DNA of 64,000 nucleotides from an uncultured Candidatus Saccharibacteria bacterium (GTDB lineage: Bacteria; Patescibacteriota; Minisyncoccia; Phycocordibacterales; UBA2100), in contig CAYYEX010000001.1 of assembly GCA_964471165.1 (NCBI GenBank), positions 65,037 to 129,036 on the forward strand, in the 5' to 3' direction. A program made the position numbers and the translations under genes. Under the pieces are notes generated by a model that was not told the origin of the DNA, made no database searches, and saw only the letters and a program-made list of their open reading frames with translations. This document shows, one piece after another, positions 16,301 through 53,434 of this stretch. The number at the start of each line of letters is the position of its first letter. Within the stretch, counting starts at the first letter, position 1.

Positions 16301-16317
16301 CTGGGGGACTTGGAATC
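16301..16317 (-). repeat. 17-nt exact copy of tRNA-Gln 3' end (GATTCCAAGTCCCCCAG), 182 nt downstream of the tRNA
   Basis: ctgggggacttggaatc at 16301-16317 equals 16499-16515. A second degenerate copy ...cttgtcccccag lies at ~16330-16345. Confidence 0.85.
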
Positions 16318-16498
16318 CCCATCGACTCATAATATCAGCCGTCGCTTCTGGGGGACAAGGAGCGCTCGCATGAGCTCGCTTTTTGAGAACCCACGGTTCT
16401 CAACGTGTCTTCGCACTGCTCTCCTCCACGGGAAACTACCGTTTCCCGCCCCCTTCACTTCCAAGTCCCGCAGGACTCGTTCATTTCATTCTCTCGTG

Positions 16499-16569
16499 CT
16501 GGGGGACTTGGAATCGAACCAAGATACGCAGCTTCAAAGGCTGCTGTCCTACCGTTAGACGATCCCCCA
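16499..16569 (-). tRNA. tRNA-Gln (anticodon UUG)
   Basis: Reverse complement TGGGGGATCGTCTAACGGTAGGACAGCAGCCTTTGAAGCTGCG...GGTTCGATTCCAAGTCCCCCAG. U1-A72 pair, G73 discriminator, anticodon loop CTTTGAA. CCA not encoded. Confidence 0.85.
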
Positions 16570-16717
16570 ATGCGCCTAAAGATAGCAGTTTCGAGCAAAA
16601 GTACGAAACCTAGCCTTCCCAGGTGCCTTATTGCATATCCCACCTGATGGGCTATTCTGAGGCAGTCGTCGGGCCTCACAGCCCGATTTTTGCGTATTTG
16701 CAATGGAGGGACTTCTC

Positions 16718-18226
16718 ATGCCACTCATGCGATTTGCACTACCGCCGAAACAGTTCTTCGAAAATTTGGCAATCACAGGCGACAGCGTCCCATTCGACGA
16801 AGTCCTCCTCGTGCCTCGGTATTCCGAGGTCCTTCCTGGTGAAGCGGATCTTTCCACCCGGATTACACGTGATCTGCGAATGGGTCTTCCCTTCCTTCCC
16901 GCTGCAATGCCCACCGTCACAGATGTGAGGATGGCCATCGCATGCGCGGAGCGCGGAAGCATGGGTATCATCCCCAGGCAACAGGACCCTGAAAAGCAGT
17001 CCGAGAAAGTCTCGACCGTCAAAAACGTGCGTAGCGGTTTCGTAAAGACGCCGCGAACGCTTCGAGCAGACAAGACTCTTGCCGAGCATCGCAGCGATCA
17101 GGATCTGCGGCTCGCCGCGGGAAAAAATGTCTTCCAATATCATCCCGTGGAAGACTCCGACGGCTCGCTTGTCGGATATCTCGACGACACACAGCTCGTC
17201 TTTCATCGCGACGACACCAAGACGATTGGTGAAATCATGACGCCAATCAGCGACAAGTATACGGTGAAGTCCGATACGACTCCGCAACAGGCTTACAAGA
17301 CACTGCTCGACCGGGCAATCCCGATTATCTTTCGGGTCCGCGGAAAGCATCTGACCGGCATGTATCTGCTCAGCGGCCTCGAGCGCAAGTTCGACAAGGC
17401 AAGCCGGACCGCCAACGTCGACAAGAATGGTCGCTTCGTGGTTGGCGCGGCGATTGGGGTCGGGACAAAGGAAATCGATCGCGGACTTCTGCTCCTGTCG
17501 AAGGGGGCGGATTTGATTGTTGTGGATGTCGCTCATATTCACACCAAATCTGGCCTCGAGACGGTGAAAATTCTGTCGAAAGAAACTCCCAACGTTCTGA
17601 CAGGAAATATCGCAACCGATGAGGCCGCACGCGACCTCATCCGCGCAGGAGCCGCTGGATTGAAAGTTGGCATCGGTCCGGGTTCAATCTGCACTACTCG
17701 TGCGGTTACCGGCAGCGGCGTGTTGCAATTGACTGCCCTGTACTGGGTCGCTCGATATGCAAAGCGATTCGGCATCCCGGTTTGCGCGGATGGAAACATC
17801 GTCGTTTCCGGCAGCCTCGCAAAGGCGTTCGGGGTCGGTGCAGAAAGCGGCATGTGCGGCAGTCTGTTCGCTGGAACAGATGAGTCACCCGGTGAGCCCT
17901 ACATCAACGCCAAGGGCCATAAGGTGAAGCGATACGACGGCGCCGGCTCAATGAGCGCAATGAACAGCGGCTCCGGCGAAATCAGGTACCGGCAGAAAAC
18001 TGTTCCCGAGGGTGTCGAGAGCGAGGTCCCGTACAAGGGCCCCGTTTCTCAGGTCATCACCAACCTCGAGGGTGGCCTGCAAGCTGCTTGCGGAATGATT
18101 GGTGCAGCCAACATTCCGGCAATGCAGAAGCAGGCGCTTCTCACTCGGATGAATGCGGCTGGTCAGCGTGAATCAAACGTTCACGACGTGACCGTGGTCG
18201 GCGATCGCGTTATCGGCTTGATGTAA
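16718..18226 (+). CDS. guaB: IMP dehydrogenase / GMP reductase family protein
   Basis: Catalytic loop VGIGPGSICTTR, ADGNIVVSGSLAKA, GSLFAGTDESPGE. RBS GGAGGG 7 nt before the ATG at 16718. The CBS-pair region looks divergent. Confidence 0.8.
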   Translation: MPLMRFALPPKQFFENLAITGDSVPFDEVLLVPRYSEVLPGEADLSTRITRDLRMGLPFLPAAMPTVTDVRMAIACAERGSMGIIPRQQDPEKQSEKVSTVKNVRSGFVKTPRTLRADKTLAEHRSDQDLRLAAGKNVFQYHPVEDSDGSLVGYLDDTQLVFHRDDTKTIGEIMTPISDKYTVKSDTTPQQAYKTLLDRAIPIIFRVRGKHLTGMYLLSGLERKFDKASRTANVDKNGRFVVGAAIGVGTKEIDRGLLLLSKGADLIVVDVAHIHTKSGLETVKILSKETPNVLTGNIATDEAARDLIRAGAAGLKVGIGPGSICTTRAVTGSGVLQLTALYWVARYAKRFGIPVCADGNIVVSGSLAKAFGVGAESGMCGSLFAGTDESPGEPYINAKGHKVKRYDGAGSMSAMNSGSGEIRYRQKTVPEGVESEVPYKGPVSQVITNLEGGLQAACGMIGAANIPAMQKQALLTRMNAAGQRESNVHDVTVVGDRVIGLM

Positions 18227-18251
18227 CGCAATCGATCAGGGCATTGTGCGG

Positions 18252-18291
18252 TCGCCGGACTTAAATGTTCCGGCGGCCGCTTTCTTTTTTT
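18252..18291. terminator. bidirectional Rho-independent terminator between guaB (+) and the L,D-transpeptidase (-)
   Basis: GCCGGAC-ttaaatgt-TCCGGC hairpin then GGCCGCTTTCTTTTTTT. Confidence 0.65.
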
Positions 18292-19189
18292 ATGACTGAA
18301 CAATGACTAATGTGCCCTGTGGCGTCCACTCGTAAAGTTTACGGGCGAGATAAAGCGGCATGTTCACACATCCGTGAGAATGCTGGAATCCGAACTCATC
18401 ATGCCAGTACGCCCCGTGAATCGCCGCTCCGTCATCGGTAAAATACATCGTCCACGGTACTCCCGGCAAATCATATTCATCTGATGTCTGTCCAGGAATC
18501 GGACCTTGCATGTATCGACTGGGCGTCTTTCTGAATATTTCATATGCACCAAGCGGAGTCGGGATACCGTCGAGACCCGTTGAGACGTCTGCCAGCATGA
18601 ACAGCTTGTCGCCGTCGTACGCATAGAGTGCCTGCTCGGAAAGATCAATGATAATCCGTTTATTATCGTCACGCCTCTCGCTCTCTCTGAAATCATGCGG
18701 TGCTGGCATTTCAAAGCTTTGCACAGCATCGCGCGCGACATAAAGCTCGGCACCAAGTCGCTCCGGATAGCGAACGAATTCATCGAAGGTGATTTTGTAC
18801 CAATCGCGATAATTATTTCGTACGACTTTGTCGACTCGCAGTACCACGCCTTTGCGCAGTTTCATGACCGCGGGGTAATCAGTTCCGGGACCGGAACGCA
18901 CATTGATACACTCACCCACGAATGCCCAGTTGCAGGTGTCGATTGCTTCGACGTACGTAATCACGCCCTCGCTGGTCTGTCGCAGCGGCATCATCGCATT
19001 TTGCACCGCACTCACGGCTTGCGGATTATTCTCGATAATCGTCACTTTGCCGCCTGAACGAGAAATGCGAAACGCGTTGCTGTCTTCGTTGGCTACGCGA
19101 TCAAGAAATCCAACCGCGCTAAAAAGCAGCAGCATCACAACAATCGCAATGACTAAACTGCGCGTTGAAGTAACACCCGATTGAGGCAT
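18290..19189 (-). CDS. L,D-transpeptidase (YkuD domain) with N-terminal TM and SH3-like region
   Basis: Catalytic motif HGAYWHDEFGFQHSHGCVNM (H...SHGC). Confidence 0.8.
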   Translation of the reverse strand: MPQSGVTSTRSLVIAIVVMLLLFSAVGFLDRVANEDSNAFRISRSGGKVTIIENNPQAVSAVQNAMMPLRQTSEGVITYVEAIDTCNWAFVGECINVRSGPGTDYPAVMKLRKGVVLRVDKVVRNNYRDWYKITFDEFVRYPERLGAELYVARDAVQSFEMPAPHDFRESERRDDNKRIIIDLSEQALYAYDGDKLFMLADVSTGLDGIPTPLGAYEIFRKTPSRYMQGPIPGQTSDEYDLPGVPWTMYFTDDGAAIHGAYWHDEFGFQHSHGCVNMPLYLARKLYEWTPQGTLVIVQS

Positions 19190-19220
19190 TCGATAAGAAT
19201 AGCAATCTTTGGGAGTATTT

Positions 19221-20105
19221 TTAGTCCCGCACCGTTACCGGTGTGCCTAGGTCGGCCCATTCGTACAACTCTTTTGCTTTTGGTGGGGGCAAGTTCACGC
19301 AACCGTGCGACCACTGCTGACCAAAGCTGTCGTGCCAATATGCCCCGTGAATCGCTCCACCTTCGTTTGTGAAATACATCGTCCACGGTACACCGGGTAA
19401 ATCAAACTCCTGGTCGCTAATGCCCGGCACCGGCCCCTGCATGTAGCGTGTTGGTGTCTTGCTAAAAATCAGAAACTGTCCGCGCGGTGTCGGCGTATCA
19501 TCAAGTCCGGTCGAAATAGTTTGTTCCATAAACAACGTCTCGCCGTCATAGGCGAAGAGCTTTTGCTCGGAACGGTCTACCAGTATTCGTTTTGCTGTAA
19601 CTGGCTTTGCGTCGTCCGCTAGTTTTTCTGCTGGCAAATGGCTAAACAGCTGCACCACATCTGCCGCCACATACCATTCATGCGACACTCGTTCTGGATA
19701 ACGCACCCATTCATCGAATGTAATTTTGTACCAATCGCGGTCATCACCGTGAATTACTTTCTGTACACGAAGCACCACGCCCGTGCGCAACGTTGCCACG
19801 GCTGGGTACTCCACTCCGGGGCCCGTGCGCACATTCACACAGGCGCCTTCATAATGAGGGGCGCAGCTATCAAGCACTTCGATGTAGTCGAGTGGTTGCG
19901 GCGGCAGTATCGGTGCGGGTTCTCTGGCAAATGATTCGTCAGAGCCCGCGGCCGCAACTTGTTCACTAGCCTCTTCTGTTGAAGCAGCAATAATCTCCTG
20001 CGGACGGTCAGACGTAAAATAGAGAATCGGCATAACAATCACCAGGCCTACGAGAGCCGTAAAACCTATTTTGCCTTGTTGTGAAAATTCCATGCCGCCG
20101 TGCAC
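19221..20105 (-). CDS. L,D-transpeptidase (YkuD domain), tandem paralog
   Basis: HGAYWHDSFGQQWSHGCVNL. Domain order identical to the neighbouring gene. Confidence 0.8.
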   Translation of the reverse strand: MHGGMEFSQQGKIGFTALVGLVIVMPILYFTSDRPQEIIAASTEEASEQVAAAGSDESFAREPAPILPPQPLDYIEVLDSCAPHYEGACVNVRTGPGVEYPAVATLRTGVVLRVQKVIHGDDRDWYKITFDEWVRYPERVSHEWYVAADVVQLFSHLPAEKLADDAKPVTAKRILVDRSEQKLFAYDGETLFMEQTISTGLDDTPTPRGQFLIFSKTPTRYMQGPVPGISDQEFDLPGVPWTMYFTNEGGAIHGAYWHDSFGQQWSHGCVNLPPPKAKELYEWADLGTPVTVRD

Positions 20106-20169
20106 CGCTGGTGTCGGACATTAGTAGCATACCATCGGCCTCCCTCCAAAAAAGATGAGTTTTGTGGAG

Positions 20170-21225: not shown

Positions 21226-21232
21226 GGCGGCA

Positions 21233-21301
21233 GTATACCCCGTGAGATAAAGAATTCTATAATTCTGCCTGACGCAGCCTTCGTTATCTCATGGGGTATA
21301 C
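21233..21301 (-). ncRNA. long imperfect inverted repeat immediately upstream of dnaX; candidate structured RNA (ffs-like position) or operator
   Basis: GTATACCCCGTGAGATAA-N33-TTATCTCATGGGGTATAC (17/18 bp arms). The loop contains the AGAATTcTAtAATTCT sub-palindrome. SRP RNA domain IV consensus was not clearly found. Confidence 0.2.
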
Positions 21302-21347
21302 CCACAAAACGAAACCGGCGCATTCGCGCGCCGGTGGGTCGTCTCTT

Positions 21348-21647: not shown

Positions 21648-21762
21648 TCGAGGGGTCTCCTTCCGAACATATTGGTATCACGCCGTTATCAAATGTCTAT
21701 AAAAGCACATCGACCGACGGAGTATTCTCCGCCGGTCTCATTTTCCATATCCCTCAGAGGGG

Positions 21763-22041: not shown

Positions 22042-22108
22042 ATCATCCCCCGCTCATCGATACCGCCGCAACAATATGTCGATGGGCGCTTTTTTGCAAC
22101 ATCATCAA

Positions 22109-27021: not shown

Positions 27022-29232
27022 ATGAAGTTAGTAATCGTAGAGTCACCTGCGAAAGCGAAAACGATCGAAAAGTATCTGGGAAAGGGATACACGGTCCGCG
27101 CTTCGGTGGGCCACATACGGGACCTCCCGAAAAGTAATAAAGACGCCGTCGATATCGAGGGTGGTTTTGTACCGCGCTATCAAATCGTAAAGGAAAAACA
27201 AAAGGTCATTGACGAGCTACACGAGATAGCGGAACGCTCGACCGAAGTGATTCTTGCAACAGACCCCGACCGAGAAGGCGAAGCGATTGCCTGGCATTTG
27301 GCGCAAACGATTGGCCTCAAAAAGCCGAAGCGAATCGTATTCCACGAAATCACCGAAAAAGCCGTCAACGATGCCATGGCCCACCCACGGAAAATCGACG
27401 AGCAGCTGGTGCGCGCCCAGGAGGCACGCCGTGTACTGGACCGCCTCTTCGGATACGACCTTTCAGGACTTATCTGGAAAAAGGTGCGCTACGGGCTTTC
27501 TGCCGGACGCGTGCAGTCCCCTGCGCTTCGCATCATCATGGAGCGCGAGCGAGAAATCCGCGCGTTCGTCCCCGAAAAGTACTGGGTAGTCAGCGCTGAT
27601 GTTAAAACAAAGAAAAAAGAACAATTCACTGTCATCTGCACTGAGGAACCAAAATCCGAAGAGGAGGCAAAGAGAATCCATGACGCCGCTACCAACAAAG
27701 AGTGGCAGGTTATTTCTGTGGACGAGAGCGAAGCAAAGCGCTCCCCGCGCGCGCCATTTACTACATCTACCTTGCAACAGGCAGCCTCGACGCGCCTCGG
27801 CTTTTCTCCATCGCGCACCATGGGTGTTGCACAAAAATTGTACGAAGCAGGTCACATTACCTACATGCGTACCGACAGTCCGAACTTGGCTGTTGAAGCG
27901 CAAGCGGCGCTCGTGGCAGTAGCCACAAACGAGTTCGGAGCAAATTATGTGGAGGCACGCACCTATAAAACTAAGTCAAAAAGTGCACAAGAAGCGCACG
28001 AAGCCGTTCGCCCCACAAATCCTCAGAAAGCGAATTGTGGCAACAACGAGGAGCAGAAAAAACTCTATGCACTCATTCGCGCTCGAGCACTGTCGAGCCA
28101 GATGGCAGACGCTAAGACGCTTCGCACGAAAATCATCGCGAATGTGACCGGAGCAACAATCCCTGATTTTGCTGCCAACGGCTCGCGCGTTACGTTCGAT
28201 GGCTGGCTTGCCGCGGACCCCGATGCTCGCGGTGAAGATGTGGAGCTACCAAAAGTTGCTGCGAACGACCCACTCACGCTCGTGGAAGCACATACCGAAG
28301 GAAAAGAAACGCAGCCACCGGGTCGCTACTCTGAAGCGGGACTCGTGAAAGAGCTCGAAAGCCGCGGCATCGGGCGCCCATCTACTTATGCATCTATTAT
28401 CCGCACCCTTGAAACACGCGGCTACGTGGAAAAGCAGGGCCGTACCATGCTCCCTACCGCAACAGGCGACGTAGTATCTACATTTATCGAAACCAACTTC
28501 GGTGAATACATTTCGGACACATTTACCGCTGAGATGGAAAACGAACTTGACGAAATCTCAGAAGGTACGCGCAAATACGAAAAAACGCTCAAAGATTTTT
28601 ACACTCCGTTTAAGAAAGCGGTGAAGGGTAAGGAAAAGATTCCAAAAATCACCGGCATGGGTGACGCACCGGAAGAGTTCCCCTGCCCAATTTGTAACGA
28701 CCCTATGGAATACAAGCTCTCCAAGAGCGGACGATTCATGAGCTGTAAAAAGTTCCCCGTGTGTTTGGGAGCTCGCCGCGACGACGGCACAATAATTCCA
28801 CCGCCAAAAGAAATCGGCGAAGCCTGCCCCGACTGCGGAGAATCAAAAGACGGCAAACTCATCCTGCGTGAGGGCCGATTCGGGCCGTTTATCGCCTGCT
28901 CCAACTTCCCCAAATGTAAGTTTGTAAAACAAGATCCGGAACAGGAGGCAAAAATGAAAACCGGCGTTACGTGCCCAACCTGCGGCACCGGAGAAATGGT
29001 GGAGCGCCGCGGACGGTTCGGAATATTCTTTGCCTGCGCGAACTACCCGAAGTGCAAAAACGCAATAAAGGCTCGCCCCACCGGCGCAATCTGCAAATTA
29101 TGCGGCTCACTCATGATGGAAGGGACTAAGACCATCCCCGAGCGCTGCAGCCAAAAGACCTGTGCAATGCACAATCCACACAAACTTGAGGGCACACCAG
29201 GAGCAGCCAAGAAAACTTCAAAGAAGAAATAA
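27022..29232 (+). CDS. topA: DNA topoisomerase I with C-terminal Zn-ribbon repeats
   Basis: MKLVIVESPAKAKTIEKYLG Toprim start, active-site region, three CxxC...CxxC zinc ribbons at the C-terminus. Start placed at the internal ATG at 27022. Confidence 0.9.
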   Translation: MKLVIVESPAKAKTIEKYLGKGYTVRASVGHIRDLPKSNKDAVDIEGGFVPRYQIVKEKQKVIDELHEIAERSTEVILATDPDREGEAIAWHLAQTIGLKKPKRIVFHEITEKAVNDAMAHPRKIDEQLVRAQEARRVLDRLFGYDLSGLIWKKVRYGLSAGRVQSPALRIIMEREREIRAFVPEKYWVVSADVKTKKKEQFTVICTEEPKSEEEAKRIHDAATNKEWQVISVDESEAKRSPRAPFTTSTLQQAASTRLGFSPSRTMGVAQKLYEAGHITYMRTDSPNLAVEAQAALVAVATNEFGANYVEARTYKTKSKSAQEAHEAVRPTNPQKANCGNNEEQKKLYALIRARALSSQMADAKTLRTKIIANVTGATIPDFAANGSRVTFDGWLAADPDARGEDVELPKVAANDPLTLVEAHTEGKETQPPGRYSEAGLVKELESRGIGRPSTYASIIRTLETRGYVEKQGRTMLPTATGDVVSTFIETNFGEYISDTFTAEMENELDEISEGTRKYEKTLKDFYTPFKKAVKGKEKIPKITGMGDAPEEFPCPICNDPMEYKLSKSGRFMSCKKFPVCLGARRDDGTIIPPPKEIGEACPDCGESKDGKLILREGRFGPFIACSNFPKCKFVKQDPEQEAKMKTGVTCPTCGTGEMVERRGRFGIFFACANYPKCKNAIKARPTGAICKLCGSLMMEGTKTIPERCSQKTCAMHNPHKLEGTPGAAKKTSKKK

Positions 29233-29237
29233 CTGAA

Positions 29238-32240: not shown

Positions 32241-32316
32241 GCACCATTATTTGTTTTCGGGGGAAAAAAGCCGTAGACTTCACCGCATCGTCCTAGAACT
32301 CGCTTTTGGGAACGAT

Positions 32317-32398
32317 GCCGGAGTGGCGGAATTGGTATACGCGAACGACTCAAAATCGTTTGTCGAAAGGCATGAGGGTTCGAGTCCCTCCTCCGGCA
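32317..32398 (+). tRNA. tRNA-Leu (anticodon CAA), type II with long variable arm
   Basis: GCCGGAG/CTCCGGC acceptor stem, anticodon loop CTCAAAA, T-arm GAGGGTTCGAGTCCCTC, discriminator A. Confidence 0.85.
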
Positions 32399-32404
32399 CA
32401 AAAA

Positions 32405-32440
32405 TACAAAAGACGGGACATTGTCCCGTCTTTTGTATTT
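32405..32440 (+). terminator. Rho-independent terminator after tRNA-Leu(CAA)
   Basis: AAAAGACGGGAC-attg-GTCCCGTCTTTTGTATTTT. Confidence 0.7.
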
Positions 32441-32573
32441 TGTAGAGCGGGGTGGAACGAGAAAGTGAGGACTGGGGCCCCGCGAGTACGCGGGGATGTC
32501 CGAGCAGGGCCGAGCGGAGAAAAGTTCTGACGAGAACTTTTCGAGCGCTTGGCCGAGTCCCTCCTCCGGCACA
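32441..32573 (+). repeat. ~130-nt tRNA-Leu-associated structured element ending in a 20-nt exact copy of the tRNA-Leu(CAA) 3' end
   Basis: Contains hairpins CCCCGCG-agta-CGCGGGG and GAAAAGTT-ctgacgag-AACTTTTC. Ends cgagtccctcctccggcaca, equal to the tRNA at 32381-32400. Homologous element at 53261..53393. Confidence 0.8.
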
Positions 32574-32575
32574 AA

Positions 32576-32956
32576 TTAAGAACGCTTCCCAAACCAACGG
32601 TGGCGGTTCGAGGCGATAATACGATACACCAGGGCACCAAGGTGCTTAATGCCCGGTAGGGCCGAAATGGGAGCCACATACCTCCCGAGCGGGTGCCACC
32701 GCAGTATCACAATCACCGCATCGATTCCCCGATACATCACGCCGTTTTCGTCCATCGCGTGCATTTGGTACATGAGCGCTTCCTTACTCATTCCCTCCGG
32801 CAGGGTTTCTGACGCACCCACCGCATCTAAGTCGATATCTGTACGCAATTTCTTTACTGTGCTCTCGCAAAGATCGCACGAATCGTCGTAGAACACTGAG
32901 CGCCGTCCGGGATGGTCTACGTGATTATCCATACAAAGTATTGTACTGTGCCGCAA
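32576..32956 (-). CDS. thiol-disulfide oxidoreductase DCC family protein (DUF393)
   Basis: VFYDDSCDLCESTV is the YDGxCxLC signature. True start may be the internal Met (at 32932). Confidence 0.7.
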   Translation of the reverse strand: MRHSTILCMDNHVDHPGRRSVFYDDSCDLCESTVKKLRTDIDLDAVGASETLPEGMSKEALMYQMHAMDENGVMYRGIDAVIVILRWHPLGRYVAPISALPGIKHLGALVYRIIASNRHRWFGKRS

Positions 32957-37467: not shown

Positions 37468-38013
37468 GTGATGCCTGCAGACGCACATAAACGAGAGGTG
37501 TCTGGCACCGAGGCCCGCGAAATGGTGCTTTCTGATATGCACCTTAAAAACCTTGTCATTCGGGGCTCTTTTGAAATGTCGGCTAGTCAAGCAGACAACT
37601 GGGAGTGGCAAAAAGAAATAGTGATTGAGAATTGTATTGTGGAGGACCTCCAGATCCCAATGTTCCATGCAGCAAAGCCCGTCGTTTTTTTGAATTCGGA
37701 TTTCAAAAAAATCGATTTGTATGCCCCGTATTTCTTATCTGGCCTACTCGTAAAGAACTGTCTTTTCGAGACTGTGGTCGATTTTCAAAGCGGTGGACAC
37801 AATAAGAATGGGACTGAATTTCGACTCGAGGGCAATGTGTTCAAAGAGTTCGTAAACTTCTTCGATGACTGGTTCGAGGGTCCAGTTGTAGTGAAGGACA
37901 ACAAATTTGAAAAAGGCACGAACTTGTTGAGCACAACACAAATGGTGACTTTCGATGTTGCTCCAGAAATCTCGGGTAATAGCGGAGAGATTAATATCGA
38001 GGGTGAAAACTGA
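37468..38013 (+). CDS. hypothetical protein (181 aa)
   Basis: ORF only. Acidic, repetitive N/F/E-rich segments. Confidence 0.4.
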   Translation: MMPADAHKREVSGTEAREMVLSDMHLKNLVIRGSFEMSASQADNWEWQKEIVIENCIVEDLQIPMFHAAKPVVFLNSDFKKIDLYAPYFLSGLLVKNCLFETVVDFQSGGHNKNGTEFRLEGNVFKEFVNFFDDWFEGPVVVKDNKFEKGTNLLSTTQMVTFDVAPEISGNSGEINIEGEN

Positions 38014-38057
38014 AAAACTCCCCGCATGGCGCATCTTTCATTAGGGTGCGGGCGATG

Positions 38058-38073
38058 TAGGAAACTCTCTAGC
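38058..38073 (-). repeat. 16-nt exact copy of tRNA-Trp 3' end (gcgggcgatgtaggaa), ~150 nt downstream of the tRNA
   Basis: Identical to 38221-38236. An inverted degenerate copy (tcgattcctaca...atcgccca) lies at 38153-38195. Confidence 0.8.
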
Positions 38074-38218
38074 CTCTCAGTTCGCCGTCGCTCACTTCGG
38101 GCTGGGCACCGCCTCGCACCCGCGCGTGCTCGCGCGGGACCCGCTCCGGCGCTCGATTCCTACACGCACAGCGCCCCACGCTATGCTATCGCCCACCGTT
38201 TTCACTATGTTCAAACTT

Positions 38219-38292
38219 TTGCGGGCGATGTAGGAATCGAACCTACACTAGCGGTTTTGGAGACCGCTGTTCTACCACTAAACTAATCGCCC
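38219..38292 (-). tRNA. tRNA-Trp (anticodon CCA), CCA encoded
   Basis: Reverse complement GGGCGATTAGTTTAGTGGTAGAACAGCGGTCTCCAAAACCGCTAGTGTAGGTTCGATTCCTACATCGCCCGCCA. Anticodon loop CTCCAAA. Confidence 0.85.
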
Positions 38293-39729: not shown

Positions 39730-39812
39730 TGCGTCGAGCAGGATTCGAACCTGCGCAGACCGAAGTCGCTTGGTTTACAGCCAAGTGCGATTGACCGCTC
39801 CGCCATCGACGC
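39730..39812 (-). tRNA. tRNA-Tyr (anticodon GUA), type II
   Basis: Reverse complement GCGTCGATGGCGGAGCGGTCAATCGCACTTGGCTGTAAACCAAGCGACTTCGGTCTGCGCAGGTTCGAATCCTGCTCGACGCA. Anticodon loop CTGTAAA, long variable arm. Confidence 0.85.
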
Positions 39813-46751: not shown

Positions 46752-46814
46752 TTGAGGCCACAGCGGGAGTTGCACCCGCCCATAGCGCAATTCTACAAAC
46801 AGAGCAGACCGCCG
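46752..46814 (-). repeat. partial copy of the tRNA-Cys 3' half (36 nt identical plus cagaccgccg), ~95 nt downstream of the tRNA
   Basis: ttgaggccacagcgggagttgcacccgcccatagcg repeated at 46752-46787 and 46851-46886; cagaccgccg at 46805 and 46893. Confidence 0.85.
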
Positions 46815-46978: not shown

Positions 46979-47063
46979 GCCGGGGTGATGGAATGGTAGA
47001 CATAGGGGACTTAAAATCCCCAGGCCGTAAAAGGCCGTGTGGGTTCGAGTCCCACTCCCGGCA
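46979..47063 (+). tRNA. tRNA-Leu (anticodon UAA), type II
   Basis: GCCGGGG.../...TCCCGGC acceptor, anticodon loop CTTAAAA, variable arm GGCCGTAAAAGGCCGT, T-arm GTGGGTTCGAGTCCCAC. Confidence 0.85.
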
Positions 47064-47072
47064 CAAAAAAGA

Positions 47073-47099: not shown

Positions 47100-47123
47100 A
47101 AGTTCAAGGTTGCTCACATTGGC

Positions 47124-48252: not shown

Positions 48253-48330
48253 TCTGCACACAAAAGGGCGCGGTTCGGAAGAATAACCGCGCCCACCCTA
48301 ATGTTCAAAAATTCTGTTTCATCCGCGGGC

Positions 48331-48936: not shown

Positions 48937-49103
48937 TTTGTATTCCCCGTCGCGATTGATGATGCCGCCAAATTAATTATTGCCGCCGTGCCGTGTATCA
49001 AAGCCTGCCACGATGGTAGCAGGTGGGTGTGTGGGTTCTCAAATGGAAAATCTATTGTAGAATGCCCAGCACCTGCCCGCTTGGGCAGTCCTTCACACAA
49101 AAT

Positions 49104-49176
49104 GCGCTCATAGCTCAGCTGGTAGAGCAGTCGCCTCTTAAGCGAACGGTCCCAGGTTCGAATCCTGGTGGGCGCA
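49104..49176 (+). tRNA. tRNA-Lys (anticodon CUU)
   Basis: GCGCTCATAGCTCAGCTGGTAGAGCAGTCGCCTCTTAAGCGAACGGTCCCAGGTTCGAATCCTGGTGGGCGCA. Anticodon loop CTCTTAA. Confidence 0.85.
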
Positions 49177-49190
49177 CAAAGACGAAACAA

Positions 49191-49214
49191 ACCTGGCCTG
49201 CGCCAGGTTTTTTC
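49191..49214 (+). terminator. Rho-independent terminator after tRNA-Lys
   Basis: AACCTGGC-ctgc-GCCAGGTTTTTT. Confidence 0.7.
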
Positions 49215-49343
49215 GCTTTGTGCGGGCCGGAGCCATGTCGCAAAAGCTTTTGCGACGGGCGAGGCAGGGTCGTGGAATTTTCCGAGCGGCGGCGAGGAAA
49301 ATATCCCTGACCACATGTGGCCCTACACCGGCGAGACGAGGGA

Positions 49344-49354
49344 GAATCCTGGTG
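49344..49354 (+). repeat. 11-nt copy of tRNA-Lys T-arm/acceptor junction (gaatcctggtg) 176 nt downstream of the tRNA
   Basis: Identical to 49161-49171. Weaker than at other tRNAs but at the same characteristic distance. Confidence 0.4.
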
Positions 49355-49358
49355 ACTC

Positions 49359-49781
49359 TTGTCCTCATCCCTCTCCCCATGCCACAATTTCCCCATGGAC
49401 TCCCTCATCACCTTCTTTCAAAACCACCCCGATTACCCGTTCTTCGCCATTTTTCTTTTCGCTATTTCCGGAATAGTTTCTCAACAAATCCTTTTCAATA
49501 GAATCAAGGAGCACCATCCCGAAAAGTGGGTGGAGCTTGGCCAGCCGAGTATGTGGAATATGTCGCAGCGAAATAATTGGCGCTACACCAAACTCCTCTT
49601 CAAGGGCGACCCGGTACTTGCCGGCGACATGCGTATCAACGGACTCATCGACTTAAATCGTGCGCTCTCCATCATTACGATTCTCGCGGTCATCGCATTC
49701 TTTGGGTATCACGTAATGATTGGCATAAACTCGATTCCCGTGTCAGTGAATGAGAACGGGAGCATCTTGCAGTCTGACTAG
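49359..49781 (+). CDS. hypothetical membrane protein (start uncertain)
   Basis: ORF with 2 TM segments. Overlaps the short tRNA-Lys copy at its 5' end. Confidence 0.3.
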   Translation: MSSSLSPCHNFPMDSLITFFQNHPDYPFFAIFLFAISGIVSQQILFNRIKEHHPEKWVELGQPSMWNMSQRNNWRYTKLLFKGDPVLAGDMRINGLIDLNRALSIITILAVIAFFGYHVMIGINSIPVSVNENGSILQSD

Positions 49782-49877
49782 CCCTTGTATTTGACTCCCC
49801 CCTATAATCAATGTACGGTATTTCCGGCACGCGAACGCACAATCCTGTGCGTACGCGAATATGGATGGAGAGTTGCC

Positions 49878-50477
49878 ATGATCTTCGTGATGAAAGTCGT
49901 CACACCAATCCTTGGGGCGCTCGGCGTTCTGATTCTGCACTACGTGTTCGGCCTCTCGCTCTTGACCGACGGGTTCCTGCTTCTGCTGGTCGCCCTGTTC
50001 AGTGCAGGCGTCTGGTTCGGTTTCGGCAACGTCATCGGGTTCTGCATGACGCAGTTCAAGGTCGCGTTCGTGCTGATTCTGACGCTGTGGCCGGTCGTGC
50101 TGTTGGCGGCGATGTATTACCTCGTGCCTTCCCTGCACGCAAACGTCCAGCGTCCGATGCAGAACGAAACCAAGGACGCCGTGATGGTCTTCAGCGGCGT
50201 TGGCGTCGGCATGGCCATTATTTCGATTATCGCCAGCTTCGTTGCTGTGCGTGAATCGGTCATCATCACCAACCTGCTGACCTCAGTCGCGTGGCTGTGC
50301 GTCATCGCCTGGATAAACGGCGGCACCTGGAATGCCTCTGGCGTCCTGCAGTACTGGGGTCTCATTGCGCTCGTAGCCTCCGGAGTCGAAGTGTTCGCCG
50401 GCATCATCGCGAGCGTGCACAACGCCTGGAACAAGAACCCCACGATGCTCCAAGGCGGCGGTCGCACCGGCATCTGA
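49878..50477 (+). CDS. hypothetical polytopic membrane protein in a high-GC (~60%) block
   Basis: RBS GGATGGAGAG before the ATG at 49878. Five to six TM helices. GC3-rich codon usage unlike neighbouring genes. Confidence 0.5.
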   Translation: MIFVMKVVTPILGALGVLILHYVFGLSLLTDGFLLLLVALFSAGVWFGFGNVIGFCMTQFKVAFVLILTLWPVVLLAAMYYLVPSLHANVQRPMQNETKDAVMVFSGVGVGMAIISIIASFVAVRESVIITNLLTSVAWLCVIAWINGGTWNASGVLQYWGLIALVASGVEVFAGIIASVHNAWNKNPTMLQGGGRTGI

Positions 50478-50517
50478 CCTCCATCCAGTCACCGAAAGGA
50501 GGTGATCACGTATCTGG

Positions 50518-50550
50518 CCCCTACCGCAATCGCGGTAGGGGTCTTCGTTT
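50518..50550 (+). terminator. hairpin terminator
   Basis: CCCCTACCGC-aatc-GCGGTAGGGG then TCTTCGTTT. Confidence 0.5.
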
Positions 50551-50725
50551 AAAAAATGGCTTCATTGACATCTCATTTAGACGTGATACTGTTATCCCAT
50601 CAACCAGCGCTGATCCAGAGACGTAGGGATCGACCTCCACTCCAGCTAACTGCCATTGATGCCAAGCCCCAACAAGATTAATTTTTTGAAACGAGTTTGG
50701 CCTTAGCAGAGCAAAATACAAAACC

Positions 50726-50926
50726 ATGCAGCAAGGAACTATTGCCCGTCTTACAGACAAGGGCTTCGGATTCATCTCCATCGAGGGTCAGGATAAAGAT
50801 CTCTTTTTCCACTCGAACGAGCTCCAGAACGTAAAGTTCGACGAGCTTCGCGAAGGAGACAAGGTTGAGTTTGAGGTAGGTGAGAGCCCAAAAGGCCCAA
50901 ACGCCCTCAAGGTCAGCAAGATCTAA
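50726..50926 (+). CDS. cold-shock protein (CspA family)
   Basis: GTIARLTDKGFGFISIEGQDKDLFFHSNEL contains RNP1 (KGFGFI) and RNP2 (LFFH) motifs. Long 5' UTR with TTGACA-N17-TACTGT-like promoter around 50566-50600. Confidence 0.85.
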   Translation: MQQGTIARLTDKGFGFISIEGQDKDLFFHSNELQNVKFDELREGDKVEFEVGESPKGPNALKVSKI

Positions 50927-50945
50927 TTCGATCAAACAAACAAAA

Positions 50946-50973
50946 AGCCCCGCGAAAGCGGGGTTTTTTGTTT
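50946..50973 (+). terminator. Rho-independent terminator after csp
   Basis: AAAAAGCCCCGC-gaaa-GCGGGGTTTTTTGTTT. Confidence 0.8.
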
Positions 50974-51007
50974 GGGCAGTGCTATGCTTACGTGACTTCC
51001 CTCTCAC

Positions 51008-51697
51008 ATGCAGCGTTTTGGTACATACCTCGCACTCCTTCCCGTCGCACTCGTTGCGCTTGTAGCCATTTGCTCGCCACTACTGCTATTCGTACTCGAT
51101 AACGACACGCTTGTCGGATTCGGATGGACGTTCAGTCTATTCATTTTGCCTGTTTGTGCAGGCCTGAGCGCAATCGGCTTGTGCATAAAAGCATACGGAT
51201 ACTTCCGCGGCACGGTTCGTATTAATCTTTGGAGCACCAGCGTTTACCTCGTAGCTCTTTTAGTATTTTCGCTACTTTCCAGCTTGGCTATTTTTCTACC
51301 AGTTGCAGCGGTCGTAGTCCCGGTGTTTGCGGCGCTCGCATGGCGCGACCAAAAAGCGAGTACCGATATCCCCACACGCCTTTCACCTGGTCGGTTTTTT
51401 ATTCTCTGGGCGGTATTCATAGTAGGAATGTATGTCACCCTCAATGCAATAGGCGGATATAAAACCGACCAATTTTTGGACAAGGCTACAAACGGCACAG
51501 GGATTCTTACATGCCAGTCCGCAATCGACGATACATACGAAAAAGTCCTTGCTGGATACTGTGATTCCAATAGCTACTTTTTCAAGATTTCTGACCAGCA
51601 GGCTCGCGGGTACACATTTACCCTACTCAGTCACGCAACATCGACCAATACCTACGGAGTTTCGGTACACGTTTTCAAAGTGAAAGTCGAAAAGTAG
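51008..51697 (+). CDS. hypothetical membrane protein (4 TM + C-terminal soluble domain)
   Basis: ORF with hydrophobic N-terminal half. Followed by a strong terminator. Confidence 0.5.
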   Translation: MQRFGTYLALLPVALVALVAICSPLLLFVLDNDTLVGFGWTFSLFILPVCAGLSAIGLCIKAYGYFRGTVRINLWSTSVYLVALLVFSLLSSLAIFLPVAAVVVPVFAALAWRDQKASTDIPTRLSPGRFFILWAVFIVGMYVTLNAIGGYKTDQFLDKATNGTGILTCQSAIDDTYEKVLAGYCDSNSYFFKISDQQARGYTFTLLSHATSTNTYGVSVHVFKVKVEK

Positions 51698-51707
51698 ACA
51701 GGCAATG

Positions 51708-51736
51708 AAAACACCCCGCTTTCGCGGGGTGTTTTG
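51708..51736. terminator. bidirectional Rho-independent terminator
   Basis: AAAACACCCCGC-tttc-GCGGGGTGTTTTG, with U-tracts on both strands. Confidence 0.8.
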
Positions 51737-51755
51737 CATCGAGTGGTCTATCTCA

Positions 51756-53033
51756 CTAACCTACAAAGGTCAGCGCCTTGCCACCCTTGCCTGCGCGGCC
51801 GGTTCGGCCGATTCGGTGTACGTAGTCGTCGTAGGTTGTTGGCTGGTCGTAGTTGATTACGTGAGTCACATCGGCAACGTCGATACCTCGTGCAGCAACG
51901 TCGGTTGCCACGAGAATGTTCACCCTGCCCTTTTTGAACGCATCGAGTGCGCGCTCACGCTTACCCTGTGTTTTATTGCCGTGAATTGATTCTGCCTTAA
52001 AGCCTCGGTCCGTAAGAATGTTCGCAAGCTTTTCTACACCGTGTTTGGTGCGACCGAAAATCAGCACGCGACTGAACTCAGGCTGTGAGAGCAGGTCGTG
52101 GAGCACGTCGAGCTTGTCTTTGCCGTTTGTACGAACCACATCTTGGTCAACCGAAGATGCAGTGTCGCGCGTTTTGACCGAAATCTGAATTGGTTTGTTG
52201 AGGAAGTCCCCAACCATGCGCTCAATTTCGCGAGAGAGCGTTGCAGTGAAGAAGAGCGTGTGACGCTGCTTTGGCATGTGCGCGAGAATAAATCGCATGT
52301 CGTCGATGAAACCCATGTCGAGCATGCGGTCTGCTTCGTCTAACACCACAGTGGTGAAGTCGGAGAGGTCGAGCGCACGCTGACTCATGAGGTCTTTCAA
52401 GCGACCAGGTGTACCGATTACGAAGTTCGGCTTGCGGCGAAGTGTCTGAATCTGTTTGTTGATGTTGGCACCGCCCACGCAGGTAACTGCACCGATGCGC
52501 ATGTACTCTGCGAAGCCCCAGAACTCATCTTCGATTTGCGTAGCGAGTTCACGGGTTGGCACCATAATAAGCACCTTTTGTGAGCGGTCATTGAGCACCT
52601 TGTCGATGAGTGGAATCAAAAACGCCGCCGTTTTTCCGGTGCCGGTGTTTGCGATACCAATCACGTCGGAGCCCGCGAGCACATGTGGAATTGCACGGTC
52701 CTGAATTGGCGTTGGTGTAACGTAACCCTTTTTAATGATGTTCTTCTTAAGGTCCTCAGCGACGTTAAAGTCGACGAAGTTGTGCTCGGGCACGAATACC
52801 TCCTGCACTTCTGTTACGGTCGCTTTGTTAACAAAGCGAGCCGGGTCGATGTACTGACCCATCTGACGCGGAGCGCGGCTTTTTGGGTAGTTTGCGCGAC
52901 CGCCCTGTGAGCGACCGCCGAATCGGGAGTGAGAACCGCCACTGCCAGAGCGTTGATATTGTTTATACATGGAGTGTGCCGCATTGCGGCTTCTAGTGTC
53001 TAATCCGACGGCCTCAAGAGTCTCATCTCCCAC
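51756..53033 (-). CDS. DEAD-box ATP-dependent RNA helicase with N-terminal RG-rich region
   Basis: Q motif, motif I ANTGTGKT, DEAD box VLDEADRMLDMGF, SAT, HRIGRTGRAG. Confidence 0.85.
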   Translation of the reverse strand: MGDETLEAVGLDTRSRNAAHSMYKQYQRSGSGGSHSRFGGRSQGGRANYPKSRAPRQMGQYIDPARFVNKATVTEVQEVFVPEHNFVDFNVAEDLKKNIIKKGYVTPTPIQDRAIPHVLAGSDVIGIANTGTGKTAAFLIPLIDKVLNDRSQKVLIMVPTRELATQIEDEFWGFAEYMRIGAVTCVGGANINKQIQTLRRKPNFVIGTPGRLKDLMSQRALDLSDFTTVVLDEADRMLDMGFIDDMRFILAHMPKQRHTLFFTATLSREIERMVGDFLNKPIQISVKTRDTASSVDQDVVRTNGKDKLDVLHDLLSQPEFSRVLIFGRTKHGVEKLANILTDRGFKAESIHGNKTQGKRERALDAFKKGRVNILVATDVAARGIDVADVTHVINYDQPTTYDDYVHRIGRTGRAGKGGKALTFVG

Positions 53034-53134
53034 TTTCGACTACAGGAGCGGTCTCGAGAGCCATCTCAAGACAAAAGAATACGAGAACGTTGGTATATGA
53101 AGATTAACACTTTGTGGTAGTATTGTCAATCGAC

Positions 53135-53216
53135 GGGCAGATGGCGGAATTGGTATACGCACTAGCCTTAGGAGCTAGCTCCGTAAGGATTGGGGGTTCG
53201 AGTCCCCCTCTGCCCA
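53135..53216 (+). tRNA. tRNA-Leu (anticodon UAG), type II
   Basis: GGGCAGA/TCTGCCC acceptor, anticodon loop CTTAGGA, variable arm TCCGTAAGGATTG, T-arm GGGGGTTCGAGTCCCCC. Confidence 0.85.
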
Positions 53217-53260
53217 CAAAAATCATTAGAGCCAGGGCATGACCTGGCTCTAATGATTTT
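53217..53260 (+). terminator. long hairpin terminator after tRNA-Leu(UAG)
   Basis: AAAAATCATTAGAGCCAGG-gcatga-CCTGGCTCTAATGATTTT. Confidence 0.75.
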
Positions 53261-53393
53261 CGGGAGGTGGATGAGACGAGAAGGCGAAGGCTGGGGACCC
53301 CGCGAGCACGCGGGGATGCCTGAGCGTAGTCAGGCGGAGAAAAGTTTTGACGAAAACTTTTCGAGCGCTTGACCGAGTCTCCCTCCGCCCACA
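53261..53393 (+). repeat. ~130-nt tRNA-Leu-associated structured element (homolog of 32441..32573) ending in an 18/21 copy of the tRNA-Leu(UAG) 3' end
   Basis: CCCCGCG-agca-CGCGGGG and GAAAAGTTTT-gacg-AAAACTTTTC hairpins. Ends cgagtctccctccgcccaca. Closing stem GGCGGAG...CTCCGCC possible. Confidence 0.8.
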
Positions 53394-53400
53394 CAAATAC

Positions 53401-53434
53401 AAAAGACCGAGGAATGCCTCGGTCTTTCGTATTT
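53401..53434. terminator. hairpin terminator similar to the one following tRNA-Leu(CAA)
   Basis: AAAAGACCGAGG-aatg-CCTCGGTCTTTCGTATTT. Confidence 0.65.

Follow-up and report, generated by a model that had tools for sequence, protein, structure and literature searches.

Five of the eight tRNA genes in the window, the whole 64-kb stretch of DNA that we analyzed, are followed by a unit in which a hairpin element of 110-190 bases separates the tRNA 3' end from a second copy of that end. It is strongly supported that these units are one element family with a true core fold. We put about even confidence in the idea that they are miniature integrative cassettes, devoid of an integrase gene, whose hairpin mimics the target site. 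The parts follow each other in a fixed order: the tRNA 3' end (O); T1, which is a hairpin or a terminator; a 5' arm, reverse-complementary to the beginning of O; a conserved core of ~95-110 nt that folds into a three-way junction, carries two hairpins that covary, and has invariant loops; and the copy (O'). The unit sits in T-loop-like sequence, just 5' of GA(A/G)TCC, and leaves the target gene intact. The original prediction on this DNA correctly saw the direct copies, but overlooked the 5' arm; being complementary to the 3' end of the tRNA, this arm closes the element as a hairpin.

The tRNA genes were called with ARAGORN and Rfam, which agree on the same eight. A same-strand copy of the 3' end was found 130-260 nt downstream of Gln, Leu-CAA, Trp, Lys, and Leu-UAG, and in these five units the repeated stretch runs from the middle of the T loop to the discriminator and beyond. 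The longest exact direct match to the tRNA in the 400 nt downstream is 17 nt for Gln, 18 nt for Leu-CAA (22/22 when the trailer is counted), 15 nt for Trp (18/19 overall), 33 nt for Cys, and 11 nt for Lys; the Leu-UAG copy matches at 16/18, or 21/23. Tyr and Leu-UAA, already reported to have no obvious copy, show at most 8 nt. The best ungapped downstream 18-mer scores 16-18/18 for Gln, Leu-CAA, Trp, Cys, and Leu-UAG, a measure for which the Lys copy is too short. As a control, the 400 nt upstream of each tRNA gave exact matches of at most 8 nt and best ungapped 18-mers of 9-11/18. A search of both strands of the 64 kb with the 3'-end 17-mers, allowing up to 3 mismatches, returned only the tRNA itself, its own downstream copy, or a paralogous tRNA. 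The copy pattern is real and far above chance, and no copy was seen other than downstream of its own tRNA and on its strand. The systematic, att-like arrangement first described is thus confirmed. Its count of six tRNAs holds for five, since the Cys copy that had been grouped with the others is a partial pseudo-tRNA, which is another class of object. With the corrections made at each locus, five tRNAs carry a unit of the family, Cys has a pseudo-tRNA fragment, and the sites at Tyr and Leu-UAA are empty.

The features of the window are given below, where R1 is the family covariance model derived from an alignment (A6) of 15 units from 7 tRNA types.

16301..16317, minus strand: outer O'' of Gln, exact copy of the tRNA 3' end
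16352..16469, minus strand: decayed inner unit of Gln (R1 11 bits, E 0.004, local search; inverted 11-mer)
16499..16569, minus strand: tRNA-Gln (ARAGORN, Rfam)
29130..29235, plus strand: uninterrupted topA 3' end, the empty form of the non-tRNA target occupied in L084 and L087
32317..32398, plus strand: tRNA-Leu(CAA), its last ~20 nt, from the middle of the T loop, being O (ARAGORN, Rfam, copy search)
32400..32441, plus strand: T1 hairpin/terminator of the Leu-CAA unit, AAAAATACAAAAGACGGGA-CATT-GTCCCGTCTTTTGTATTTTG (read from the sequence)
about 32445-32461, plus strand: degenerate 5' arm of the Leu-CAA unit, directly 5' of the core
32454..32561, plus strand: A-type three-way-junction core of Leu-CAA (R1 115.1 bits, E 5e-29)
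32554..32575, plus strand: O' of Leu-CAA, copy of the tRNA 3' end and trailer, CGAGTCCCTCCTCCGGCACAAA
about 38005-38052, minus strand: terminator-like hairpin and T run after the Trp O'
38047..38065, minus strand: O' of Trp
38059..38161, minus strand: B-type core of Trp (R1 33.3 bits, E 2.5e-6, full length)
38154..38196, minus strand: 5' arm of the Trp unit (read from the sequence; inverted 12-mer)
38222..38292, minus strand: tRNA-Trp (ARAGORN, Rfam)
39730..39812, minus strand: tRNA-Tyr, empty site in the window genome
46752..46813, minus strand: partial pseudo-tRNA-Cys, outside the unit family
46979..47063, plus strand: tRNA-Leu(UAA), empty site in the window genome
49104..49176, plus strand: tRNA-Lys(CUU) (ARAGORN, Rfam)
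49189..49210, plus strand: T1 terminator of the Lys unit (terminator call)
49217..49317, plus strand: decayed core of the Lys unit (R1 22.4 bits, E 2.6e-6, local search without filters)
49344..49354, plus strand: truncated O' of Lys, GAATCCTGGTG
53135..53216, plus strand: tRNA-Leu(UAG) (ARAGORN, Rfam)
53218..53260, plus strand: T1 hairpin of the Leu-UAG unit (read from the sequence; weak terminator call at 53234-53251)
about 53262-53280, plus strand: 5' arm of the Leu-UAG unit
53273..53381, plus strand: A-type core of Leu-UAG (R1 113.4 bits; fold z-score -5.6)
53374..53393, plus strand: O' of Leu-UAG
53395..53447, plus strand: second terminator (T2) of Leu-UAG and relic O'' (terminator call at 53402-53427)

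The Leu-CAA core is made of the inner pairs of P1, of P2 with hairpin hp1, and of P3 with hairpin hp2. Its T1 is of a conserved type with a CATG-like loop, which also accompanies A-type cores at Leu-UAG in L004 and at Tyr in L086. At Leu-UAG, T2 matches the T1 of Leu-UAG in L004, and comparison with L004 and with the empty site of L003 identifies the GAGTCCCCG following T2 as the relic O'' of an older unit whose hairpin was deleted. The Trp copy had been placed at 38058-38073 and actually lies at 38047-38065. The 5' arm of this unit is split into GTGGGCGAT, the complement of the acceptor 3' strand, and GTGTAGGAATCGA, the complement of the T stem and T loop; a junction hairpin parts the two halves at the very boundary of acceptor and T stem, as it does in Lys, Tyr, Asp, and Ser units of relatives. 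The Lys copy is short because its unit has decayed, although the family model still recognizes it. The exact and the degenerate copy noticed at Gln are both present, but they belong to different objects: the degenerate one, CCTTGTCCCCCAG (16348-16360), is the O' of the inner decayed unit and pairs with its 5' arm GGGACTTGGAA (16459-16469), whereas the exact one is the outer copy, preceded by an hp2-like remnant with a GCGACGGC loop. A low-GC block adjoins this tRNA gene.

In the A6 alignment 95.3% of the cells are paired in the consensus fold, and 25 of the 36 pairs have changed on both sides. None of 500 shuffles was as good, and only 30-43% of the cells remain paired when the partners are slid. 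The fold belongs to the tRNA-sense strand, because there are 26 G-U pairs versus 4 A-C. The core is under structural constraint, and hence the elements are not inert scars, one of the options of the original prediction. The shared GC hairpins that it mentioned turn out to be the covarying hairpins of this core, and the alignment and covariance model that it proposed to build recover a conserved fold. The repeats measure 11-35 nt at tRNAs and about 95-105 nt at the gene topA.

The family is widespread among related Paceibacteria (candidate phyla radiation, CPR): R1 produced about 35 matches in roughly 420 kb of their DNA, nearly all of them 27-253 nt downstream of a same-strand tRNA, and none elsewhere in the window. 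Besides topA, at least 12 tRNA species carry the core. Among relatives, the Tyr site is empty in the window, L005, and L006 and filled in L003, L004, L007, L008, L086, and L092; the Leu-UAG site is empty in L003; and Leu-UAA is filled only in L001, where it carries a tandem array. Comparing orthologous tRNA loci, as had been advised, thus revealed both filled and empty sites. Tandem arrays with a full O' and a terminator between units were found in L029 and L053, and nested or fused units in L048 and L078. The core of Leu-CAA in the window is 91% identical to those of Tyr in L086 and Leu-UAA in L001, and 68% identical to that of Leu-CAA in L070; the IF-2 genes of the window and L086 are 80% identical as DNA. 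Core similarity is decoupled from tRNA identity in these comparisons. The T1 type is also common to A-type cores across different tRNAs and different genomes.

The topA gene provides a target that is not a tRNA. In L084 and L087 the family core follows topA, O being a stretch of ~95 nt that reaches the stop codon. The 5' arm of these units is complementary to the allele of the functional gene end, and the displaced O' is the other allele, which is uninterrupted in the window. In L084 the displaced, divergent end still reads as an intact C-terminus. This suggests that the host's own end was displaced downstream, an assignment of the native end that rests on few genomes.

We favor integrative cassettes because the copies are confined to the downstream side of their own tRNA, on its strand; because one family with a covarying fold is targeted downstream of same-strand tRNAs; because sites differ in being filled or empty and units form tandem and nested arrays; and because of the displaced topA end, the independence of core similarity from tRNA identity, and the shared T1 type. 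Of the two options originally put forward, a miniature tRNA-targeting insertion element is for these reasons (filled and empty sites, arrays, topA) the better fit. In such a cassette, O would be the replacement copy of the target 3' end, which in tRNAs begins in mid T loop and ends a few nt beyond the discriminator. When the tRNA-sense strand becomes single-stranded, the 5' arm could pair with O or O', and the resulting hairpin would recreate the target site in duplex form, with the core as its cap. By analogy with integron attC sites and the attP(+) of CTX phage, it may be the folded site on which a recombinase provided in trans acts. Judging from the layouts, repeated insertion at one tRNA would stack cassettes into arrays, while hairpin deletion and recombination between direct repeats would fuse or remove them. 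The inserts were rightly described as short and free of cargo or integrase: a scan of 50 window ORFs revealed no gene for a recombinase, a transposase, or a reverse transcriptase. A single integrase was seen, in L091; by tblastn across 418 kb it retrieved only itself, with none near units, and no free, circular, viral, or plasmid copy of a unit was found in viral, phage, and plasmid collections. Some observations speak against cassettes. The alternation of target-specific O, conserved T1, target-specific 5' arm, and conserved core cannot come from a single crossover when the target changes. The orthologous Tyr units of L003 and L004 show compensatory changes, next to terminators that cannot be aligned, and these could equally reflect in-place constraint on a functional RNA.

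The units resemble attC sites, integron cassettes, and attP(+) in several respects. All are imperfect palindromes of ~60-150 nt, conserved in structure rather than sequence, that fold in a strand-specific way, occur in ordered arrays beside one primary site, mimic a duplex target by a folded single strand, and form cassettes without a recombinase gene; a conserved, strand-specific imperfect palindrome in arrays is also what we observe in the units. However, inspection of A6 revealed no attC boxes R''/R' (RYYYAAC / GTTRRRY); O' starts with CGA(A/G)TCC and the 5' arm ends with TCGAA(A/G)G. No IntI or Xer site was identified in the units, whose recombination is only proposed, their "cargo" is only a replacement gene end and a hairpin, and the primary site is the tRNA T loop. 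As in tyrosine-integrase elements, direct repeats from the T loop to the 3' end flank the insert, the gene is restored, and at topA the host's own end lies downstream. Yet the units measure 130-260 nt instead of kilobases, have neither ORF nor integrase gene, and share one core among many target species; moreover, to the left of the crossover the duplex does not resemble a tRNA, and the distant complementary arm supplies this part by folding. MITEs, REP/BIME, Rickettsia palindromic elements, and Correia elements are likewise short, non-coding, hairpin-forming, numerous in small genomes, and variably present between relatives. In contrast with their constant terminal inverted repeats, the unit arms match each target, and the units lie strictly downstream of tRNAs in one orientation. 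We rejected an identity with MITEs, as the arms vary with each tRNA and there is no short fixed target-site duplication.

The main rival, which we regard as possible but rather unlikely, is a functional tRNA-trailer RNA like RtT of Escherichia coli. Such an RNA would share a transcript with the tRNA, either by leaky termination at T1 or, in units that lack T1, directly, and would fold into a three-way junction whose closing helix repeats the acceptor and T stems of the tRNA. Enzymes processing tRNA ends would cut it at the pseudo-3' end into a stable small RNA with a host function, and unit turnover would result from repeat recombination and from exchange of whole tRNA modules among relatives. 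The strand-specific covarying fold with its invariant loops and junctions fits this idea, as does the junction hairpin of B/D-type units, placed at the point from which a real tRNA extends its D and anticodon arms. In units of the Trp, Gln, and Ser-GGA types, no terminator separates the tRNA from the core, which makes co-transcription likely there. In general, O' often has a terminator of its own, and at Leu-CAA the core type is linked to the tRNA allele. However, a strong intrinsic terminator precedes most A/C-type units, pairing of the 5' arm extends to the discriminator and trailer, unlike in a tRNA, and many units have lost one arm and kept an intact core. The duplicated coding end of topA, the decoupling of core and tRNA, and the fact that close relatives differ in the tRNAs that carry units, some having none in the loci sampled, also argue against a trailer RNA.

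The E. coli precedent is nevertheless the closest analogue. Apart from the present units, the layout is seen only in the rtT repeats of tyrT, which are poorly understood, and the "previously undescribed" of the original prediction holds only with a qualification: the 178-nt repeats behind tyrT/tyrV (rttR, RtT RNA, Rfam RF00391) share it, and rttR is a known processed RNA (PMC3318445; bioRxiv 10.1101/2024.07.17.603846). There (locus L088) the tRNA is followed by three units at 178-nt spacing, each ending in an exact copy of the last 19 nt. Each has a 5' arm GGGGAAGGAT complementary to the copy, then GAGAAG as in a CPR variant, and arm and copy close a branched fold. The CPR units likewise lie behind a tRNA and end in a 3'-end copy closed by a complementary 5' arm. 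R1 matches all three repeats on the right strand at 6.8-9.8 bits, too weakly to be significant as homology. With all of Rfam, cmscan of the Leu-UAG and Trp units gave no RtT match at E up to 10, a threshold at which RtT would have shown up; among 4227 Rfam models, the 64-kb window gave none at the gathering score and the units matched no self-cleaving ribozyme, group I intron, or other family. In contrast with the CPR units, the E. coli feature is restricted to one tRNA operon, lacks a terminator inside the unit and the P3/hp2 domain, includes CCA in its copy, and has been described as a processed RNA rather than a mobile element.

Local duplication without mobility seems improbable. Slippage and template switching at a palindromic terminator would make inverted and direct copies, which gene conversion would hold in agreement, and sequences would be shared because the trailers have a common ancestor. 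This agrees with the long palindrome that O plus the left T1 half builds with the right T1 half plus the 5' arm, with the variable right-hand end of O', 0 to 16 nt beyond the tRNA, and with the 3.14 tandem repeats of E. coli, but leaves unexplained one conserved covarying core at no fewer than 12 tRNA species and topA, and near-identical cores at different tRNAs of different genomes. That the repeats are att scars of decayed, integrase-bearing prophages or islands integrated at tRNA genes is very improbable given the uniform size and order of the units, the compensatory changes in their core, and the lack of integrase remnants (among the window ORFs and in the tblastn search) or of larger versions in the collections mentioned above, even if their extent fits the tRNA sublocations usual for integrases, from the T loop to the 3' end.

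The Cys fragment, and possibly the low-GC block by tRNA-Gln, may be of this last kind. The fragment extends from the anticodon stem as far as the 3' end, positions 36-40 being replaced by 16 nt of unrelated sequence, and its likeness to the real tRNA-Cys ends after CTGC, at position 35/36. Orthologous decayed remnants of it are present in L004, L005, and L001.

The pattern of tRNA 3'-end copies in the window is real, systematic, and interesting. ARAGORN and Rfam return the same eight tRNAs, all singletons within 37 kb, and exact copies of the 3' end lie downstream on the same strand at six of them.

tRNA-Gln: copy of 17 nt exact
tRNA-Leu-CAA: copy of 18 nt exact, 22/22 including the trailer
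tRNA-Trp: copy at 38047-38065, 15 nt exact, 18/19 overall
tRNA-Cys: copy of 33 nt exact, within 46752-46813 (minus strand)
tRNA-Lys: copy of 11 nt exact
tRNA-Leu-UAG: copy matching at 16/18, 21/23 including the trailer
tRNA-Tyr and tRNA-Leu-UAA: no copy (at most 8 nt)

The original prediction of copies behind six of the eight tRNAs was confirmed, with clean upstream controls: the upstream flanks gave at most 8 nt of exact match and 9-11/18 in ungapped comparison, against 16-18/18 in the downstream flanks of Gln, Leu-CAA, Trp, Cys, and Leu-UAG. These are the five clear copies, the 11 nt of the Lys copy being too short for this 18-mer measure. When 17-mers of the tRNA 3' ends were searched on both strands of the whole window with up to 3 mismatches, they matched only in the tRNA itself, in the downstream copy, or in a paralogous tRNA. 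The Trp copy had been placed at 38058-38073 and these coordinates are corrected here. The Cys copy had been counted with the others and does exist, but it is a partial pseudo-tRNA and not a member of the same family. Its homology to the real gene stops exactly after CTGC, at anticodon-loop position 35/36, and decayed orthologous remnants are present in three relatives (L004, L005, and L001). A recent study of Patescibacteria tRNAs reported a group I intron site at this very position.

The window seems to derive from a small genome of Paceibacteria, in the candidate phyla radiation (CPR): it encodes a type IV secretion pilin like those of the CPR and a short IF-2, its eight tRNAs are singletons, and CCA is not encoded. 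The nearest public relatives are metagenome-assembled genomes of Paceibacteria/Kaiserbacteria, and a search with an exact window protein found no strain variants on record; the source contig seems unique.

In the repeated units, the arms reproduce the target in direct and in inverted orientation. At the loci that we read, the order of the parts is fixed on the tRNA strand: the tRNA 3' end, a first terminator (T1), a 5' arm reverse-complementary to that end, a core, the downstream copy, and often a second terminator (T2). T1 is made of an A tract, a hairpin, and a T tract; in A- and C-type units it has a CATG-like loop with flanks AAATACAAAA / TTTTGTATTT, and in units of the Trp, Gln, and Ser-GGA type a short terminator-free linker takes its place. 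The 5' arm, which the original prediction lacked, spans from 1-2 nt beyond the discriminator back to T54, with a terminal TCGAA(A/G)G, and in B- and D-type units a small covarying hairpin divides it exactly at the acceptor/T-stem boundary. The copy begins at C56/G57 (CGA(A/G)TCC) and closes the element by pairing with the 5' arm. The arm pairs equally with the tRNA end through T1, resulting in one long palindrome. We rejected the reading of this arm as a primer-binding site, since it complements the genomic trailer and not CCA.

These units form a conserved, strand-specific, covarying family behind tRNAs and the protein gene topA. Our alignment comprises 15 A-type units, which represent seven tRNA types and come from the window, its syntenic relatives, and a pattern scan of metagenomes (of the 64 loci in that scan, about 50 were chance matches without tRNAs and were dropped after ARAGORN and inspection). 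It has 31 invariant columns. Aligning the elements and modelling their covariation had been proposed as a check, and the outcome is a covarying three-way junction in which 95.3% of cells are paired and 25 of the 36 pairs have changed on both sides. None of 500 shuffles matched the observed pairing values, and sliding the partners by 1-3 columns brought pairing down to 30-43%. P1 consists of the two arms, P2 bears a hairpin with tetraloop AG(C/U)A (hp1), the junction reads GAGC(A/G)(G/U)GG, and P3 has an internal loop GA/GAG and bears a hairpin with tetraloop GACG (hp2). This last tetraloop is CTGACGAG, for which a hammerhead-like reading was rejected because it belongs to a covarying hairpin. 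The core pairs include 26 G-U versus 4 A-C, and two P3 pairs are G-U in around half of the sequences each, always on the tRNA-sense strand. Hence, the fold belongs to that strand, which fits either RNA or folded single-stranded DNA.

The family covariance model built from this alignment (R1) gave 94-118 bits to A-type units, 20-62 bits over the full length to the visibly different B and C types, and 22.4 and 11 bits to the decayed Lys and Gln units of the window. It has about 35 matches in some 420 kb of Paceibacteria DNA, nearly all of them 27-253 nt downstream of a same-strand tRNA (Leu of three kinds, Ser of two kinds, Tyr, Trp, Lys, Gln, His, Asp, and Met), and none away from tRNAs in the window. 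Rfam, at the gathering score and with E up to 10 on two units, returned just tRNAs and chance microRNA-like matches. Viral contigs, searched with three core patterns and then with R1 on the matches, gave only chance matches in high-GC coding DNA, and a BLAST of one unit against phage and plasmid collections gave no match. Among 50 ORFs scanned in the window, no recombinase, transposase, or reverse transcriptase was found.

The similarity between cores is decoupled from target and host. The window Leu-CAA core is 91% identical to both the Tyr core of L086 and the Leu-UAA core of L001, 82% identical to the window Leu-UAG core, and 68% identical to the Leu-CAA core of L070; as a yardstick, the window and L086 share 80% identity in their IF-2 DNA. 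In different genomes, one T1 type is found together with A-type cores at three tRNAs, Leu-CAA, Leu-UAG, and Tyr. Since neither core similarity nor T1 type follows the tRNA, T1 and core move between targets and genomes, and the tRNA end and 5' arm are target-specific.

Related genomes differ by insertions and deletions of units, by arrays, and by states of decay. We compared occupancy across genomes whose IF-2 proteins are 86-97% identical, and orthologous tRNA loci, suggested earlier as a test, include both filled and empty sites. The window, L005, and L006 have an empty Tyr site, which in L003, L004, L007, L008, L086, and L092 is filled, with differing core types. The Leu-UAG site is empty in L003, where the tRNA directly meets the neighbouring gene, and the Leu-UAA site is filled in L001 only, with rearranged flanks in the orthologous comparison. 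The single Tyr terminator of the window aligns ambiguously to T1 or T2 of filled sites. Two tandem arrays (L029 at Asp, L053 at Tyr) read tRNA, T1, A unit, full copy, T2, C unit, and further-out copy, and in L048 and L078 the copy-T2-5' arm hairpin between two cores is deleted, leaving GAATCC..ATTCGAAAG. At the window Leu-UAG locus, the T2 after the copy matches T1 of L004 and adjoins GAGTCCCCG, a relic of a unit still present in L004. Arms decay in two modes: either the 5' arm is perfect to the tRNA end and the copy is missing or derives from a different tRNA, or the copy is perfect and the 5' arm is degenerate.

A protein gene is also a target. R1 matches immediately 3' of topA in L084 (41.5 bits), and a C-type unit, recognised by eye, occupies the same position in L087. 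The order in L084 is a short-tail topA 3' end, the 5' arm, the core, and a repeat of the final ~105 nt of topA. The arm complements the start of the short-tail functional end (…GTTTTTGT…). The second copy, which begins with GAAGACCATCCCC, is the other, long-tailed allele and can still be read as an intact C-terminus. In the window this long-tail allele is uninterrupted, and the short-tail allele occurs with no unit in L086 and in more distant genomes. The junction CGATTCC / CCATCCCC resembles a T loop and T stem. This layout, where the arm fits the functional end and the divergent end is displaced, suggests the behaviour of an integrative element bringing a replacement 3' end, with a polarity taken from few genomes.

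We give roughly even odds to the units being integrative cassettes without an integrase gene. Such a cassette would carry a replacement copy of the gene end that it interrupts, and its hairpin, once folded, would mimic the target and serve as recombination site for an enzyme supplied in trans. The main rival explanation, a tRNA-trailer RNA that is processed like RtT, seems less likely to us, and the two are not mutually exclusive. It would account for the terminator-free linkers, the junction hairpin at a tRNA-like position, and the compensatory changes between orthologous units; however, the strong T1 terminators, a pairing that reaches beyond the discriminator, the units at topA, and the uneven occupancy of sites argue against a purely RNA-gene reading.

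Both att-type duplications of tRNA 3' ends and RtT-type trailer repeats are known kinds of nearby phenomena. In the distal repeats of E. coli tyrT/tyrV (rttR), the tRNA-Tyr end recurs as three exact 19-nt copies spaced 178 nt apart. In front of each copy stand a branched core and a 5' arm (GGGGAAGGAT-GAGAAG) that complements it, and the predicted fold is closed by this arm. In the literature, rttR is described as a single repeat unit of the tyrT operon that is released from the transcript and has no known function (PMC3318445; bioRxiv 10.1101/2024.07.17.603846). R1 recognises all three repeats on the right strand with just 7-10 bits, and Rfam scans of the window Leu-UAG and Trp units gave no RtT match. 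Hence, the layout is common to rttR and the CPR units and their homology is unproven. A study of tRNA introns in Patescibacteria (bioRxiv 10.1101/2025.07.03.662931) makes no mention of the CPR units.

There is a fair chance that the family represents a new class of minimal mobile elements. A more specific proposal, which we consider less likely than not, is a class of mobile DNA made of ~200-nt protein-gene-free cassettes, in which a target-mimicking hairpin with a conserved three-way-junction cap is joined to a replacement gene end. These cassettes would have tRNA T loops, or look-alikes such as a site in topA, as primary sites. A structure-specific recombinase of the host would move them, and both arms could be re-matched to new targets; the E. 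coli rtT repeats would then be a fossil of the same principle. If the units are mobile, they would be among the smallest integrative elements known, and streamlined episymbiont genomes (~0.3-1 Mb) would bear dozens of selfish cassettes at essential tRNA genes. If they are RNAs, they constitute a large new CPR family of tRNA-linked structured RNAs. For the tyrT 178-bp repeats, a puzzle of 45 years' standing, the analysis offers a testable model, and R1 can be applied to any genome. The extra tRNA-end copies and pseudo-ends can mislead tRNA annotation and the callers of att sites and prophages.

The cassettes look like drivers of local genome change, with tRNA modules inverted in place, tRNA genes swapped, and foreign copies. 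Close relatives carry entire tRNA-plus-unit modules in opposite orientations, with the order of the flanking parB, DCC1-like, miaA, and IF-2 genes unchanged (window 32241-32580 versus 9300-9640 of L084/L086/L087; also the Trp, Tyr, and Cys/Leu-UAA loci). The Leu-CAA module has two alleles, one with T stem GTGGG and a C-type unit, the other with T stem GAGGG and an A-type unit. In L001, whose IF-2 is 93% identical to that of the window, the tRNA-Leu(UAA) body (4410-4494) is of the type of the distant L006, and the gene plus its array appears to have been replaced. Copies that match some other tRNA occur in L059 (Tyr), the first unit of L007, and the third unit of L001 (e.g., GAATCCCATTCCCACA behind tRNA-Tyr); such units are the expected product of recombination between units at different tRNAs.

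The sole integrase found in the relatives, in L091, is not linked to units. It is a tyrosine integrase in an island that also encodes a primase-polymerase (11083-17800), with no attached unit and no att repeat of at least 13 nt. Nearby, a duplicate of the first 20 nt of tRNA-Leu(CAA) precedes the gene by ~60 nt (10010-10029). In the window, a lower-GC block (4000-16000; GC 0.45-0.48 versus ~0.52) adjoins the downstream side of tRNA-Gln and encodes NUDIX, HD, methyltransferase, thymidylate kinase, DUF1846, and cation-efflux proteins; neither an integrase nor a far att copy was found for it. Two tandem paralogues at 18290-20105 (minus strand) each encode an L,D-transpeptidase (YkuD) with an SH3 domain. 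Among the relatives, L083 has at ~3640-3700 a tRNA-like 3' half missed by ARAGORN, possibly of an intron-containing tRNA-Asp, and L090 carries a weak Y1 transposase ORF and LAGLIDADG ORFs (9429-10004 and 12593-13387) beside tRNA-Leu(CAA) and tRNA-Tyr.
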